Position numbers and translations under genes: made by a program. From a virus: a DNA stretch of 33,408 bases. Each line of letters begins with the position of its first letter. The stretch's first letter is position 1. Location of the stretch: UHGV virus genome UHGV-0124208; one strand, given 5' to 3'. Shown here in pieces: positions 21,647-31,701 of the stretch. The notes beneath the pieces were generated by a model that ran no database searches, was not told the DNA's origin, and was given only the letters and a program-made list of their open reading frames with translations.

Positions 21647-23416
21647 TCATACGTCAGGGGTAATCCAGTCGACTAAAGCCTCAATACTTTCGAAATCTGC
21701 ACAGATATCTGAAAGAGGTTGTGTATCTGCTTTTGTTTTGAAATCAGCCCATACTGATTCATTTTTTTCTGTAAGACCCAAATGGTTTTCTATCGAACCA
21801 TTTAGCCAAATCCAAATATTTGCATTTCTCAGTTTTGCGGCTAATGATGACAAAAATTCTCTGGCGCCGGGCTTTTGAGACATAATAGCAAATGCTTCAG
21901 CTGCGGTAGTGTTACTACCCTTTGTAGGCAAACCGGATCCATCGAGAGTGCATTCTCCATTAGCATGCATACTTCTCAAGATTTCTTTTAGTCGTAAAAT
22001 ATCCTCGTCATTATGTTCTAAGAAGTTGTTCCTTATTGCACCGCGGAACGCAAAATCTAAATCAACAATTGCTTTTGTAGGTATATCCATTGAATTTAGA
22101 ATTTGCATCGTTTTAGATATACTTTCAACGGACCCTGTTTCAATTAGTGCTATTTGCATCTGACCTAATGTTTTATTTTTAACTTTGTTAAAAATAAATG
22201 GGAGCAGAGTAGTCTCTGTTTTACCTTCTGTTAGTATTACATTGTTAGCAAACAAAACTTTTGAAGACTGTGTTAATGAAAATAAATGGGTTGCTTGTGC
22301 TGGTCGTTGTTCGATTACTTTATTGACTGCTTCTTTTAATGTTAATCTGCAATGAGTGCCACGCTGACTGTTTTTTCTGATTAACACAGTGTCTTTTGCT
22401 AAGTCAGAGGTAATCATTTGAGATGAATGGGTAGAGAAAATTATTTGATATCCATGATGAGATAGTGTTTTTAGAGATTCTCTAATTTGTTCGATAGCAA
22501 ATGGGTGAAGATATAACTCAGGTTCATCTATTAACAGTAGAGTAGTTGTTTTAATATCATCACCGTTGGTTATATCAGCTAAATGTCTTATTAGAGACAT
22601 CTGAATCGAACGCTGTGTGCCATGACCATAAGAAGAACAGTCACGAGCAATGCCGGGAAATGAATCTTCATATACTTTTACAGTCCCAGATTTAAATATA
22701 TCCTTGAAGTCAGGGAGTTCGAAGTGTAGTTTTAAACTTATCCCAGGGAAGAAATCAGCAAGTTTACTACTTATTGAATCATCAATATCATTGAGGTCCG
22801 ATATTCGTTTATTACCGGTTGCAGTCATTCTTCTATTAACGGCATTTAAATGGCTTAGTATCCTTTGAGTGTGCTTCTCTTCTATTTTGCAACTCAATTC
22901 TGCCAGCAACTTACCTATTGTAGTTCCTGTTTTTGATTTTGAAGAATCATCCGCTGCATTTTCCATTGCACCTATACGTATTGGGTCTGGAAATAAAGCT
23001 TTTATCGCATTCTCAATACCCGTTGGTGATGTCCTGAATTCGTTATTTTCTGGGTTTTTAATTAATAATCTGACGTCTTTTGCACTTTGAGCACCAACAG
23101 TCTGTTGACGCTTAAATATCAATACCCCATCAATAATGTAGGGTGAAATTCTAGTTCTGTTTTCTTCTGTTAAAGCTGACAAAATATCTTCAGTAATACC
23201 CTTAACTGTACCTATAACTTCTATAGGGTTATCTGGATTAGTATAATCATCAGAGGACAAAAGTTTTTTCTTAAAAAGCCATTCAATAGCATTTAAAATC
23301 GTTGACTTACCAGCATTGTTGTAACCGATTAAAGGCGTGAATGAAGAAAAATTGATATCAATATCTTTGCAAGATCTAAAGTTTTTTATAGAAATCTTTG
23401 AAAGATGATGATTCAT
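21647..23416 (-). CDS. old: OLD-family ATP-dependent nuclease (N-terminal ABC-type ATPase + C-terminal Toprim), P2 Old-like, single-gene
   Basis: 589-aa ORF. N-terminal Walker A in ISIKNFRSCK...LIGYNNAGKSTILNAI; central FGHGTQRSIQM and LLIDEPELYLHP (Walker B-like); C-terminal VILTEGKTET...VDLDF Toprim-like acidic motifs. AT-rich relative to flanks. Located between cI and int. Confidence 0.75.
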   Translation of the reverse strand: MNHHLSKISIKNFRSCKDIDINFSSFTPLIGYNNAGKSTILNAIEWLFKKKLLSSDDYTNPDNPIEVIGTVKGITEDILSALTEENRTRISPYIIDGVLIFKRQQTVGAQSAKDVRLLIKNPENNEFRTSPTGIENAIKALFPDPIRIGAMENAADDSSKSKTGTTIGKLLAELSCKIEEKHTQRILSHLNAVNRRMTATGNKRISDLNDIDDSISSKLADFFPGISLKLHFELPDFKDIFKSGTVKVYEDSFPGIARDCSSYGHGTQRSIQMSLIRHLADITNGDDIKTTTLLLIDEPELYLHPFAIEQIRESLKTLSHHGYQIIFSTHSSQMITSDLAKDTVLIRKNSQRGTHCRLTLKEAVNKVIEQRPAQATHLFSLTQSSKVLFANNVILTEGKTETTLLPFIFNKVKNKTLGQMQIALIETGSVESISKTMQILNSMDIPTKAIVDLDFAFRGAIRNNFLEHNDEDILRLKEILRSMHANGECTLDGSGLPTKGSNTTAAEAFAIMSQKPGAREFLSSLAAKLRNANIWIWLNGSIENHLGLTEKNESVWADFKTKADTQPLSDICADFESIEALVDWITPDV

Positions 23417-23459
23417 TTTAGACTCCTCCAGTAAGTATTTAAAAGTAATGTCTGCAATG

Positions 23460-24398
23460 TTATTGTATTGTTAAGATAATGCTGGCTATAATTTGAATAT
23501 CCTCAATGGAACACTCAAAATCCTTACTCCCACCAGAAACAAGAATTTTGTTCTTAGGTAAACGAGTTAACTCTTTTAAAGATAACTCATTGTCAATTCC
23601 TACTAACCATTTTCCATCTCTAATTAGGTGAAATTCTTTATCACATATGACATGTTTTTCTCCATTGCTTACAAACATCAAGCTGCTAGTTTCTTGCTTC
23701 GGAAGTAGACACCGATCCATGGATAAAAAACCTGACTCGACAAGCACGCCATTGACCAAATTGAACTTATTTAAAATTACAGTGTTTTCTTCTTGTGAAC
23801 TATTTGGTGTTTCGATTCCTGTAACTAGCCAGGCGAGATCCGCTTTGGTTTCTAATGCGCATTTAATCACCCAATCCGCAGGGAAAGAATCTCGCATGTA
23901 TCGTGTGGCTAATGTGCTTTTTGAAATACCAAGGTGGTCGGCTAAGGCTTGGCGGGTTTTAAACCCGTAAGCATTAACAATCCTCTCTATCGCGGCTTTT
24001 CCTCCGTTAGTAAGCTCAATGTGATTCTCAATGCGGCGCTTAAAGGATGATTGATGAGCGTTGCTGTTAAACCCCTCATGTGGGACTGTTTCATCATGTT
24101 GTTCCACATAAGGGGGGAAACTTTCTTCTGCATTGTTAGAACCAAAGGCCAGCCATTCTAGGGATGCGCCAGTTTCCATTGAACATATAACAACCCAATC
24201 AGCAGGGAAGGTATCGCGTGCATATCTATTAGCCATTGTGCTTTGTGAAATACCAAGATGCTTACAGAAGGCTTGGCGTGATTTGAAACCATAGGCCTTG
24301 AGTATCCTCTCAATGACTTTTTGCCCTCCACGATTCTGCATGACCATAGCTTTCAGACTATCTTCAATATGGCGAAATGTGATTTTTTGAGTTGACAT
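23460..24398 (-). CDS. cI: Immunity repressor CI, coliphage 186 type, with a tandemly duplicated N-terminal DNA-binding domain
   Basis: 312-aa ORF. Residues about 28-85 (VIERILKAYGFKSRQAFCKHLGISQSTMANRYARDTFPADWVVICSMETGASLEWLAFG) and about 128-185 (AIERIVNAYGFKTRQALADHLGISKSTLATRYMRDSFPADWVIKCALETKADLAWLVTG) are two copies of the 186 CI N-terminal domain motif; about 125-aa C-terminal domain. Divergent from apl-cII. Confidence 0.75.
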   Translation of the reverse strand: MSTQKITFRHIEDSLKAMVMQNRGGQKVIERILKAYGFKSRQAFCKHLGISQSTMANRYARDTFPADWVVICSMETGASLEWLAFGSNNAEESFPPYVEQHDETVPHEGFNSNAHQSSFKRRIENHIELTNGGKAAIERIVNAYGFKTRQALADHLGISKSTLATRYMRDSFPADWVIKCALETKADLAWLVTGIETPNSSQEENTVILNKFNLVNGVLVESGFLSMDRCLLPKQETSSLMFVSNGEKHVICDKEFHLIRDGKWLVGIDNELSLKELTRLPKNKILVSGGSKDFECSIEDIQIIASIILTIQ

Positions 24399-24420
24399 AT
24401 TCTTTATGTGAACCTATTCT
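24392..24420 (+). promoter_or_regulatory. Candidate rightward lytic promoter (pR-like) for apl-cII, overlapping the cI start codon
   Basis: TTGACA (24392-24397), 17-bp spacer, TATTCT (24415-24420); about 65 bp upstream of the apl ATG. Sequence-only call. Confidence 0.4.
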
Positions 24421-24485
24421 CCGTTTTGTGATGTTTTGTCACGATTAATACCGGCTCACCACAAGCCAATAGGAGATGTTGCATC

Positions 24486-24707
24486 ATGACCCCTAACATT
24501 TCAATAACTCTGAATACGCCACACGTCACAATTGAGCGTTATAGCGAACTTACTGGTCTTTCTATCGACACCATCAACGATATGCTGGCTGATGGTCGTA
24601 TCCCTCGCCATCGCCTTCGGAAAGACAAGAAAAGAGAAAAGGTAATGATCAACCTTGCTGCTCTTACCGTTGATGCACTTACTGATTGCAATGTTGTATT
24701 CAACTAG
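24486..24707 (+). CDS. apl: Apl/Cox-like small HTH protein (excisionase / lytic-switch repressor)
   Basis: 73-aa ORF, first gene of the rightward operon opposite cI; contains an HTH-like segment [24 protein letters not shown]. Confidence 0.7.
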
Positions 24708-24739
24708 TTCCATTTTGGGATGCATCAGGAGTGTCGACT

Positions 24740-25249
24740 ATGTTTGATTACCAAGTTTCCAAACATCCACATTTTGATGAAGCCTGTCGTGCATTTGCAC
24801 TGCGCCACAACCTGGTGCAACTGGCAGAACGTGCAGGCATGAATGTACAGATTCTGCGGAACAAGCTGAACCCAGCTCAACCTCATTTATTAACCGCACC
24901 AGAAATCTGGCTGCTTACCGATCTGACTGAAGATTCAACGCTGGTAGATGGTTTTCTGGCACAGATTCATTGTCTGCCATGTGTTCCGATTAATGAGGTA
25001 GCGAAAGAGAAACTGCCGCATTACGTTATGAGTGCAACTGCAGAGATAGGGCGTGTCGCGGCAGGTGCGGTTTCTGGCGATGTAAAAACCAGTGCAGGCC
25101 GTCGTGATGCGATCAGCAGCATTAACTCTGTTACACGACTGATGGCGCTGGCTGCTGTTTCATTGCAGGCCCGTTTACAGGCTAATCCTGCGATGGCGAG
25201 TGCAGTTGATACCGTGACTGGCCTCGGTGCCTCATTCGGTTTGCTGTGA
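24740..25249 (+). CDS. cII: CII-like lysogeny-establishment activator (186 CII family)
   Basis: From ATG 24740 (RBS AGGAG): [45 protein letters not shown]...[25 protein letters not shown]..., which matches 186 CII as I recall it; 169 aa. Confidence 0.8.
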
Positions 25250-25256
25250 GGTGCTT

Positions 25257-25457
25257 ATGCTGACGAAAGAACCATCATTTGCATCGCTGCTGGTAAAACA
25301 AAGCCCGGCAATGCACTACGGTCACGGCTGGATCATGGGGGAGGATGGTAAACGCTGGCATCCGTGCCGTTCACAAGATGAATTGCTGGCAGAACTATCT
25401 ACGAAAAAACGGGGGAACAAATGGCTATTGAAGGCGCTGCGGCGACTGTTCCATTAA
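25257..25457 (+). CDS. Small early protein, function unknown (occupies the position of fil in 186)
   Basis: 66-aa ORF from ATG 25257 (MLTKEPSFASLLVKQ...); the assignment is positional only. Confidence 0.5.
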   Translation: MLTKEPSFASLLVKQSPAMHYGHGWIMGEDGKRWHPCRSQDELLAELSTKKRGNKWLLKALRRLFH

Positions 25458-29649: not shown

Positions 29650-29665
29650 CTGTAAATATAAACAG
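29650..29665. promoter_or_regulatory. LexA operator (SOS box) upstream of the DinI/Tum-like operon
   Basis: CTGTAAATATAAACAG = CTGT-N8-ACAG with an AT-rich centre, flanked TA...TG (consensus TACTGTATATATATACAGTA); 43 bp upstream of ATG 29708; a -35-like TTTACA at 29625-29630. Confidence 0.75.
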
Positions 29666-29707: not shown

Positions 29708-29896
29708 ATGCAGGACTATTTTTTGGAGTCTTTGAAGCTCCAGCGCATTGATTTTTTTCTTAAGCTTGTAGCGGCTAGTGAGTGTAGTGATGAAGAGAAG
29801 GGGCTGGCTCTGCAGTGGGTTTCTGAATTGACTGATGAACTCATGGCAAAAATCAGAAGCCACGAATACAACCGCTCAATGGATGTCATCAGCTGA
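29708..29896 (+). CDS. Small SOS-regulated protein, first gene of the Tum-like module (function unknown; candidate antirepressor component)
   Basis: 62-aa ORF with RBS AGGAGG, directly downstream of the LexA box. Confidence 0.55.
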   Translation: MQDYFLESLKLQRIDFFLKLVAASECSDEEKGLALQWVSELTDELMAKIRSHEYNRSMDVIS

Positions 29897-29906
29897 GGTG
29901 ACTTTT

Positions 29907-30140
29907 ATGCGCATTGAAATAATGATCGATAAAGAGCAGAAGATTAGCCAGTCTACCCTGGACGCACTTGAATCCGAGCTTTACCGCAATCTGCGCCCCC
30001 TGTATCCCAAAACGGTAATTCGCATTCGCAAAGGTAGCTCTAACGGTGTGGAACTAACCGGACTGCAACTGGATGAAGAAAGAAAACAAGTGATGAAAAT
30101 TATGCAGAAGGTGTGGGAGGACGACAGCTGGCTGCATTAA
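29907..30140 (+). CDS. DinI-family protein (Tum C-terminal-domain-like)
   Basis: From ATG 29907: MRIEIMIDKEQKISQSTLDALESELYRNLRPLYPKTVIRIRKGSSNGVELTGLQLDEERKQVMKIMQKVWEDDSWLH, which aligns by eye with E. coli DinI (MRIEVTIAK...; ...ILQETWESADDW). Confidence 0.75.
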   Translation: MRIEIMIDKEQKISQSTLDALESELYRNLRPLYPKTVIRIRKGSSNGVELTGLQLDEERKQVMKIMQKVWEDDSWLH

Positions 30141-31155: not shown

Positions 31156-31701
31156 ATGGACGTTATAACTGGAGTTGCAGAGTTTTTTCGAAAAGTACCT
31201 GCAGCATTTCTTGTGGCTATTACATGTGTTTTAGGTCTTATACTTTTTCTGCCAGACTCTTTGGCAGTAAAAGTGGCTGTTGATGGCTTTCGTAATGAGT
31301 ATAGGATTTTTATTGGACCTGCATTTTTACTGTCTGTATCTTATTTAGTTGCAAGAGTCTATCTCTCTTTCTATGACTTACTTGGTGAAAGGCAGGCTAA
31401 GAAGGTACGCACTTCCTACCTTGAGAAGCTAACAGCAGAAGAAAAAGGATATTTAAAGTCTTATATTACCGAAGGTGTTAATTCACTTATGTGTGGGCCT
31501 GAGGATGGGGTCATGGGGGGACTTGTGGCTAAGGGGATTACTTATAGAGCCACCAGTGTTGGGGATATGATCTACGGTTTTGCTTTCAACTTACAGCCAT
31601 GGGCGCGTGAACATTTAGAGAAAAATAGTCATTTATTAGATGGGGCTATTGGGCGTGCAATGACTCCAAGAGAAAAATTAAACTTTAGATTGGGACGCTA
31701 A
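31156..31701 (+). CDS. Membrane protein with two N-terminal TM helices, unknown function (accessory gene between cos and Q)
   Basis: 181-aa ORF with RBS GGAGG; hydrophobic segments AAFLVAITCVLGLILFLP and IFIGPAFLLSVSYLVARVYL followed by a soluble domain; AT-rich; followed by a strong hairpin. Confidence 0.65.
   Translation: MDVITGVAEFFRKVPAAFLVAITCVLGLILFLPDSLAVKVAVDGFRNEYRIFIGPAFLLSVSYLVARVYLSFYDLLGERQAKKVRTSYLEKLTAEEKGYLKSYITEGVNSLMCGPEDGVMGGLVAKGITYRATSVGDMIYGFAFNLQPWAREHLEKNSHLLDGAIGRAMTPREKLNFRLGR

Follow-up and report, generated by a model that had tools for sequence, protein, structure and literature searches.

The immunity repressor of the virus genome UHGV-0124208, a 33,408-nucleotide (nt) stretch of DNA (the window) that constitutes a whole P2/186-like prophage, is, judged by its sequence, a double-headed, chimeric member of the 186 CI family. 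It is encoded by cI (23460..24398, minus strand), an intact open reading frame (ORF) of 312 amino acids (aa) plus stop, and is a 186-type immunity repressor with tandem helix-turn-helix (HTH) domains. By homology, its layout is that of the leader and head of one repressor, a disordered tether of about 40 residues, and the whole of a second repressor complete with head, hinge and oligomerization domain. What might a repressor of this family do with two heads? The explanation that we favor, and consider reasonably probable as a whole, is that this chimeric 186 CI has two working heads and responds to a TumA-like antirepressor.

Domain architecture of the CI protein

From the N-terminus, the protein comprises a leader (cI codons 1-22, 24333..24398, MSTQKITFRHIEDSLKAMVMQN), whose DNA overlaps the -35 hexamer of the candidate lytic promoter pR and the region upstream of it; an outer head, N1 (residues 23-88, 24135..24332); an inter-head linker (residues 89-130, 24009..24134); an inner head, N2 (residues 131-196, 23811..24008), the ortholog of the one head that ordinary 186-type CIs possess; and a hinge (197-209) leading to a C-terminal domain (210-312) with the oligomerization fold of 186 CI (together 23463..23810), all encoded on the minus strand. 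Both heads are Phage_CI_repr HTH domains in Pfam: PF07022 matches two stretches of the 312-aa CI (E 1.5e-58; cut-off 22 bits), and PF16452 (Phage_CI_C) matches once, at residues 210-308 (E 1.4e-22). Aligned with each other, N1 and N2 share 43 of 78 positions, or 55% amino acid identity (E 3e-32). Pfam and this alignment bear out what an earlier note, made from the DNA letters alone, had claimed, namely a 312-aa repressor with two homologous 186-type heads and one C-terminal domain; its estimates of about 58 residues for each repeat and about 40 for the linker were close to the ~63-68 residues per domain and ~38-43 for the linker found here. It had also given phage 186 CI a single head, correctly, as that protein scores a single PF07022 domain in Pfam and its structure (PDB 2fjr) aligns to residues 136-308 only, which are the second head and the C-terminal domain (173 residues, E 2e-28).

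The AlphaFold2 model, built on 42 homologues, contains five-helix domains at residues 25-85 and 133-193 (predicted local distance difference test score, pLDDT, ~85-90), a beta-rich C-terminal domain at 206-311 (pLDDT >90) and, between the heads, a linker that is predicted to be disordered (pLDDT <50 over residues 89-124). By Foldseek, the C-terminal domain superposes on that of 186 CI (2fkd_A) with a root-mean-square deviation of 1.2 A, a template modeling (TM) score of 0.89 and 33% identity; the C-terminal domains of LexA and lambda CI are weak fold matches, at 9-18% identity. No Peptidase_S24 match was found in CI in a Pfam scan to E 0.1. A protein identical to the window CI carries the name 'Repressor protein CI [Escherichia coli]' (P0001).

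Parentage of the two heads

Where might the two heads have come from? Residues 1-92, the 22-residue leader included, are 79% identical to residues 1-92 of P0073, a 208-aa single-head CI of Salmonella enterica diarizonae, and P0073-type CIs have this leader too. Over residues 127-312, the protein matches the whole of the 185-aa single-head CI P0033 at 72% identity, from Met1 to the last residue; 185-aa CIs of this P0033/P0036 type come from Citrobacter and others. Among the best 120 database clusters listed (at 90% identity), 45 are two-headed and 75 one-headed. When all heads are aligned, N1 heads average 72% identity among themselves and 57% to N2, and N2 heads average 72% identity to the heads of single-head CIs. 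A neighbor-joining tree of the domains groups 36 of the 44 outer heads with the heads of 207-209-aa single-head CIs of the P0073 type, the clade of outer heads and P0073-like single heads having 98/100 bootstrap support, and the inner heads scatter among ordinary single heads. The linker of other tandem proteins ends in a segment (K-F-P-I-E-x-x-I-N-P-N-Q-G-G) that matches the N-terminus of the 198-aa single-head CIs (M-S-T-S-K-Y-P-N-E-I-K-I-N-P-N-Q-G-G). From these comparisons, the P0073-type and P0033-type single-head CIs look like the two parental types.

Conservation of the heads and the tether

Across 26 distinct main-clade tandem cI genes, the ratio of nonsynonymous to synonymous divergence (pN/pS) is lowest in the outer head N1, at 0.12, making it the most strongly conserved part of the protein; the inner head N2 follows at 0.23, then the leader (0.57), the C-terminal domain (0.66), the linker (0.78) and the hinge (0.87). 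In N1 and N2 alike, the recognition-helix motif S-x-S-T-[ML]-A-x-R-Y varies hardly at all. Mean identity of the linker among relatives is 30%, and its length is 39-46 residues in 42 of 45 tandem proteins. Furthermore, an N1-type head is the sole head of P0073-type CIs, which are found in complete 186-like immunity regions. From the low pN/pS of the heads, their retained recognition helices, the constrained length of the tether and the solitary service of N1 elsewhere, we infer that both heads are working DNA-binding domains on a flexible tether of constrained length.

The first 66 nt of cI (codons 1-22, 24333-24398) behave differently at synonymous sites. There, synonymous divergence falls to roughly half its value elsewhere in cI (pS 0.32 versus 0.61-0.67), which suggests constraint at the DNA level, for example from pR upstream or UP-element sequence, or from a CI site containing AATGTGA.

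The pR switch and candidate operators

As in the 186-type CI family, cI opens the leftward lysogenic operon on the int side and is divergent from apl-cII, and the predicted pR abuts the start of cI. The candidate promoter (24392..24420, plus strand) is sigma-70-like and scores 10/12 in a consensus scan, with a -35 hexamer TTGACA at 24392-24397 that overlaps the cI ATG, a 17-nt spacer and a -10 hexamer TATTCT at 24415-24420. It has the position, relative to the cI start, of the annotated pR of phage 186, and it is present in all the tandem and single-head relatives compared. According to the annotation of phage 186, three CI operators lie at its pR, together extending from the start codon of cI to slightly beyond the -10 (~+6).

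The switch of the window is a mosaic. Its junction falls near 24436, just downstream of pR, where close relatives vary in length by 1-2 nt. To the left, the outer-head DNA is contiguous with the pR block and both are P0073-like: cI codons 1-21 are 75% identical to a P0073-type locus versus 40% to a 198-aa-type locus. To the right, the rest of the spacer, apl and cII match phages with an ordinary single-head CI, and bases 24436-24485 are 44% identical to the P0073-type locus versus 96% to the 198-aa-type locus. E. coli CFT073 and 67-1, which have tandem CIs, and MB7671, which has a 198-aa single-head CI, encode an identical Apl protein and have nearly the same sequence as the window from ~24438 rightward. 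Because of the linkage between N1 and the pR block, and of the operator positions in phage 186, the pR operators of the window phage would be expected inside the P0073-like block that also encodes N1.

The junction is contained in a candidate operator element, TTTGTGATGTTTTGTCACGA (24425..24444, plus strand), just downstream of pR, the left half of which is common to the P0073-type switch and the right half to the 198-aa-type switch. All main-clade tandem loci have TTTGTGA(A/T)GTT..GTCAC, in which 7-9 nt separate GTGA from TCAC. Single-head relatives with the same apl carry the perfect palindrome GTACCCAATTGGGTAC where the window phage has TTTGTGATGTTTTGTCACG, and tandem phages have TTTGTGA(A/T)GTT..GTCACGA at that site. 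Upstream and within the element, TGTGA occurs three times in one orientation (24378, 24407 and 24427), the last copy being invariant among relatives. Between the copies at 24407 and 24427 the distance is 20 bp, reminiscent of the two turns by which the 186 pR operators are spaced (PMC3675496). GTGA-N7-TCAC (24428-24442) also lends itself to a reading as two direct repeats, GTTTTGTGAT and GTTTTGTCAC, spaced by roughly one helical turn.

The earlier note had proposed a search for operator half-site arrays around 24390-24480 and had argued that a tandem-HTH repressor implies a different operator geometry or specificity. TGTGA-containing candidates do lie at 24378-24444, none of them definable with confidence. 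The pR-proximal sequence does differ from that of single-head relatives with the same apl, which partly supports the argument, and a different geometry or specificity is plausible.

Other candidates were set aside. As a dyad operator, GTGA-N7-TCAC was kept as a candidate only, given its spacing of 7-9 nt and a right arm common to single-head phages, and a CRP site at the same place was rejected, by sequence reading, on account of an N7 unlike that of TGTGA-N6-TCACA. The direct repeat TGTGATKTTTTG has two exact copies (24378 and 24427), and its window-wide count with 2 mismatches is that of chance. Nothing above chance was found for the 186 operator motifs (TTCAC-N5-GTGAA and CAATTG-centered palindromes) in the window, for perfect palindromes with 6-nt arms in 23300-25400, or for the 198-aa-type palindrome GTWCCCANTTGGGKAC across the window, and a search for distal FL- or FR-like sites likewise gave nothing above chance and none convincing. 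An FR-like distal site, TAGTTCCATTTTGRGA, in the apl-cII spacer was rejected: it is equally conserved with 185-aa, 198-aa and tandem CIs, and so has no CI-type specificity. The spacer itself (24708-24739, TAGTTCCATTTTG(G/A)GA) is conserved in ~60 loci regardless of CI type, and occupies the position of FR and the pE promoter region in phage 186.

In loci of the 198-aa type (E. coli MB7671, L051, and others), GTACCCAATTGGGTAC is a 16-bp perfect palindrome just downstream of pR (L051 2736-2751), and a half-site-like TTGGGTAC lies 59 bp to its left, within cI codons 5-7 (L051 2677-2692). Both are likely operators of the 198-aa immunity type.

How a two-headed repressor might work

CI of phage 186 ranks among the most thoroughly studied models of how genes are controlled cooperatively. 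Its subunits, each with a single head, assemble as seven dimers into a wheel that both wraps DNA and loops it. In the explanation that we favor for the window CI, an immunity cassette consisting of the 5' end of cI and pR would have recombined in frame into a resident cI, giving the tandem gene. Both heads would bind DNA, displayed on a 186-like dimer or wheel of C-terminal domains with four heads per dimer. The outer head would read the pR-proximal operators linked to it, and the inner head would add contacts, either at weaker or distal sites of the resident type or at the operators of incoming phages of that type. Induction would depend on a LexA-controlled TumA-like antirepressor, as in 186 and PSP3, and would involve no self-cleavage. 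With two differing heads on each subunit, and so 28 in a wheel if one forms, such a repressor could be viewed as a natural experiment on how valency and tether length affect operator choice, DNA wrapping and the stability of the switch, and its chimeric origin suggests a simple route by which temperate phages change or widen their immunity without a new repressor.

In a further development of this explanation, possible but doubtful in our view, CI would be a dual-immunity repressor in which N1 keeps the phage's own lysogeny at its own pR and N2 silences 186-like phages from a second immunity group when they superinfect. The repeated origins of the layout (in Enterobacterales and Shewanella) would then reflect selection for broader immunity, and the stacked cI genes of two relatives (L072 and L112, described below) would be intermediates in head gain. 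If this were true, CI would be a possible example of a repressor with two immunity specificities.

Several points weigh against a repressor with two working heads as we have described it. The AlphaFold2 model has a predicted TM score (pTM) of 0.40 and therefore no confident inter-domain arrangement; combined with the disordered linker, this makes the relative placement of the CI domains untrustworthy, and any inter-domain packing read from the model was dropped for the same reasons. Near pR no operator can be defined with confidence, the TGTGA motifs and GTGA-N7-TCAC being suggestive only. The GTCAC right half of the element lies within a block conserved in all phages that share apl, the single-head ones included, so it may be an Apl site rather than a CI site, and the variable spacing of 7-9 nt fits a recombination scar as well as an operator. 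That N1 and pR are linked would follow simply from their adjacency, and is no proof of recognition. The P0073-type single-head CIs, finally, could instead be deletion derivatives of tandem proteins.

Could the two heads of one chain be filling both half-sites of a single operator, as a 186 CI dimer does? Such a single-chain pseudo-dimer would place two operators on each dimer of C-terminal domains, doubling the DNA sites per wheel and altering operator spacing. The tether is long enough for this and its length is held at 39-46 residues, the element downstream of pR can be read as two half-sites (GTGA..TCAC, or GTTTTGTGAT and GTTTTGTCAC), and the recognition helices of N1 and N2 are similar, though not identical. 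Yet the spacing of these half-sites ranges over 7-9 nt among close relatives with near-identical heads, the right one lies in a block that single-head phages also possess, and AlphaFold shows no head-head packing, so that we think this arrangement unlikely, if worth keeping in mind. It is less probable still that N1 alone binds operators and that N2 is kept mainly as a structural spacer or as a partner of the C-terminal domain, with no specific reading of DNA. That N1 is more conserved than N2 and that pR operators of the N2 type (GTACCCAATTGGGTAC in the 198-aa type, TCAC-N5-GTGA sites in the 185-aa type) are absent from the tandem switch would agree with such a division, but N2 is under purifying selection (pN/pS 0.23) with a nearly invariant recognition helix, and a mere spacer would be expected to drift like the linker (pN/pS 0.78). 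If one head were redundant, the finding would shrink to a curiosity of domain architecture.

An improbable further role for N1, to which we give slightly less weight again, is that of a regulatory or decoy module, a docking site or sink for Tum-type antirepressors that would tune inducibility or shield the prophage from the antirepressors of other prophages. Tum blocks DNA binding by 186 CI, and trans-acting antirepressor cross-talk has been documented between Salmonella prophages (PMC3121763); in the window phage, for its part, tumA-like and DinI-like ORFs come after a LexA-box-like site. Against a decoy stand the intact HTH motif of N1, the most conserved part of the protein, and the use of N1-type heads as the sole DNA-binding head of P0073-type repressors. 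The chance that the gene is an artefact, a collapsed repeat or a mis-assembled or mis-called fusion of adjacent cI genes, is negligible. Adjacent cI genes do occur in the relatives L072 and L112, but the two head-coding DNA copies are only 63% identical (39% at third codon positions) and their longest common exact word is 12 nt, which excludes a collapsed or expanded repeat; moreover, the frame runs uninterrupted in dozens of independent records, 45 of the 120 listed clusters have it, as do isolated phages and complete genomes, and the identical protein is encoded on several independent contigs. The duplication is therefore genuine, and the assembly artefact that the earlier note had named as one way its claim might fail was excluded.

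Comparison with known systems

CI of coliphage 186 (192 aa; PDB 2FJR and 2FKD) is built from the same PF07022 head and PF16452 C-terminal domain families as the window CI. The two phages also agree in having int, a leftward cI, a divergent pR and rightward apl-cII (apl-cII-fil in 186); where 186 has its LexA-controlled Tum region, far to the right, the window has a LexA-box-like site and a tumA-like ORF. Unlike 186 CI with its one head, the window CI adds in front a 22-residue leader, a second head and a tether of ~40 residues, and neither the A-type ATCTCTCAATTGGGAGAT of 186 pR nor the B-type ATTCAC-N5-GTGAAT of 186 FL and FR was found in the window in that form.

The same layout exists in known phages. 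CI of Salmonella phage PSP3 (NP_958086, 286 aa) has two PF07022 domains and one PF16452 domain, and PSP3 also has a split tumA/tumB. However, the PSP3 heads are only 34-51% identical to the window heads, and the PSP3 outer head has its nearest match in the inner head of the same protein (51%, versus 34% to window N1), pointing to a separate origin of the PSP3 tandem CI. The CI of the E. coli CFT073 prophage (PhiECO3, WP_001181139), again with two PF07022 domains and PF16452, belongs to the same clade as the window CI, and this prophage is nearly identical to the window in apl and the right half of the switch. Phages with P0073-type or P0033/P0036-type CIs have a 186-like immunity region as in the window, but one head each; the two types are unlike each other in the sequence next to pR, where the window has the P0073-like version.

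Lambda CI and P2 C are functional analogues only, HTH-headed immunity repressors at a divergent or face-to-face promoter switch that, unlike the window CI, come from other sequence families and have one head per chain. In lambda CI, as in the window CI, the heads are coupled to an oligomerizing C-terminal domain, and its inactivation is by RecA-stimulated self-cleavage. P2 C is described as binding direct repeats (PMC2995052).

Distribution and probable separate origins

The identical CI protein occurs in E. coli genomes and on IMG/VR contigs. The outer-head region has matches in approximately 253 of the 5,426 E. coli genomes that are complete, and two sampled from the middle and tail of the ranking have tandem CIs; we put the share of complete E. 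coli genomes with such a prophage at about 4%. GenBank Klebsiella phages, 4LV2017 and ST437-OXA245phi4.2 among them, also encode tandem CIs. An exhaustive search with one head among 1.84 billion representative proteins yielded no more than 165 relatives. Some 30 of the best 150 are matched over two stretches, and those checked, from Citrobacter, Enterobacter, Pantoea, Edwardsiella and Shewanella, have two PF07022 domains and PF16452. In the domain tree, the outer heads of two smaller tandem groups belong to other clades, and the outer head of the Edwardsiella protein is 82% identical to a Hafnia single head. Since outer heads thus differ in origin across lineages, the tandem layout seems, from sequence relationships, to have arisen several times. 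The carriers include the uropathogen CFT073 and clinical Klebsiella prophages, so that the behavior of such a repressor matters for how prophages are induced, and superinfection is excluded, in strains of medical relevance.

The earlier note had allowed that its claim would be refuted if known 186-family repressors already had this two-domain N-terminus, and this is in part the case: the PSP3, CFT073 prophage and Klebsiella CIs have it, annotated only as 'repressor protein CI', and the literature searched does not recognize it as a second head. A 2011 paper records the extra length of the PSP3 and CFT073 CIs as 'a longer C-terminal domain' (PMC3448106). We found no account of a duplicated head in the literature searched, which was largely without subscription journals and is therefore weak evidence, so that an earlier description is possible. 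The layout is widespread and present in known phages, and so is not categorically new; its function is apparently unstudied.

Two loci among the relatives have cI genes in close succession. On an IMG/VR contig (L072 1375-2924), a complete single-head cI of 189/191 aa precedes a 307-aa tandem cI on one strand; the upstream gene is 50 bp away, and a remnant TTGACAT stands between the two. In L112 (1995-3151), a 198-aa two-head ORF without a C-terminal domain overlaps by 4 nt at its end the start of a complete 187-aa single-head cI, giving three heads over two ORFs; this could be a three-head repressor with a frameshift, an error of sequencing or a true split. Both loci are possible intermediates toward the addition of heads.

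Proteins that end soon after the second head, lacking a C-terminal domain, are found in L002 (Dryocola sp. BD586) and as P0041 (229 aa) and P0049 (227 aa), and may be decayed genes or free two-head DNA binders. The CFT073 CI (L049 2107-3033, C_RS04425) is 289 aa in RefSeq and 292 aa in strain GYX208DH4E-2. A conserved upstream ATG that overlaps TTGACAT would give 308 aa including the leader, which indicates that the RefSeq start was probably mis-called, too late. Four long proteins, P0214, P0219, P0225 and P0239 (834-1426 aa), have 6-7 weak head-domain matches each and are probably unrelated proteins with multiple HTHs; in the case of P0214, many HTH families give a match, the best being HTH_7 (resolvase-type).

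Prophage setting and probable induction region

The gene order around the switch is int, an OLD-like ATPase-TOPRIM gene and cI, with cI leftward, followed by the rightward apl and cII and then DUF5347, Dam methylase and a replication gene. The first gene of the lytic operon (24486..24707, plus strand) is an apl/cox-like excisionase-regulator gene in the position of 186 apl; its product had no Pfam match and is the hypothetical protein WP_000188448.1 in the annotation of relatives. It is followed by a gene for a cII-like establishment activator (24740..25249, plus strand; PF06892, Phage_CP76, E 3e-42).

Far to the right on the plus strand, a LexA-box-like site, CTGTAAATATAAACAG (29650-29665), a single pattern match that is not above chance on its own, precedes a 62-aa tumA-like ORF (29708-29896) and, in a different frame, a DinI-like (tumB-like) ORF (29835..30140; PF06183, DinI, E 1.2e-22). 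This is the layout of the split tumA/tumB annotated in PSP3, an arrangement that has been described for PSP3 and Fels-2 (PMC3121763). The 62-aa tumA-like product is, by this resemblance, a probable SOS-controlled antirepressor acting on the window CI. Given the LexA-box-like site and the split tumA/tumB-like layout, induction through such an antirepressor is likely, by analogy with 186.

Between cI and int, a 589-aa gene (21647-23416, minus strand) encodes AAA_15/AAA_21 ATPase and OLD-like TOPRIM domains, and its product looks, on domain content, like an OLD-family nuclease. The cargo at this spot differs in relatives, with GmrSD and HEPN in 67-1, DUF4041 in MB7671 and a hypothetical protein in CFT073, and such variation between cI and int fits the P2-like anti-phage hotspot (PMC9122126). 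An ORF of 181 aa at 31156-31701 (plus strand) has a match to SieB, a protein of superinfection exclusion (PF14163, E 4.5e-25).

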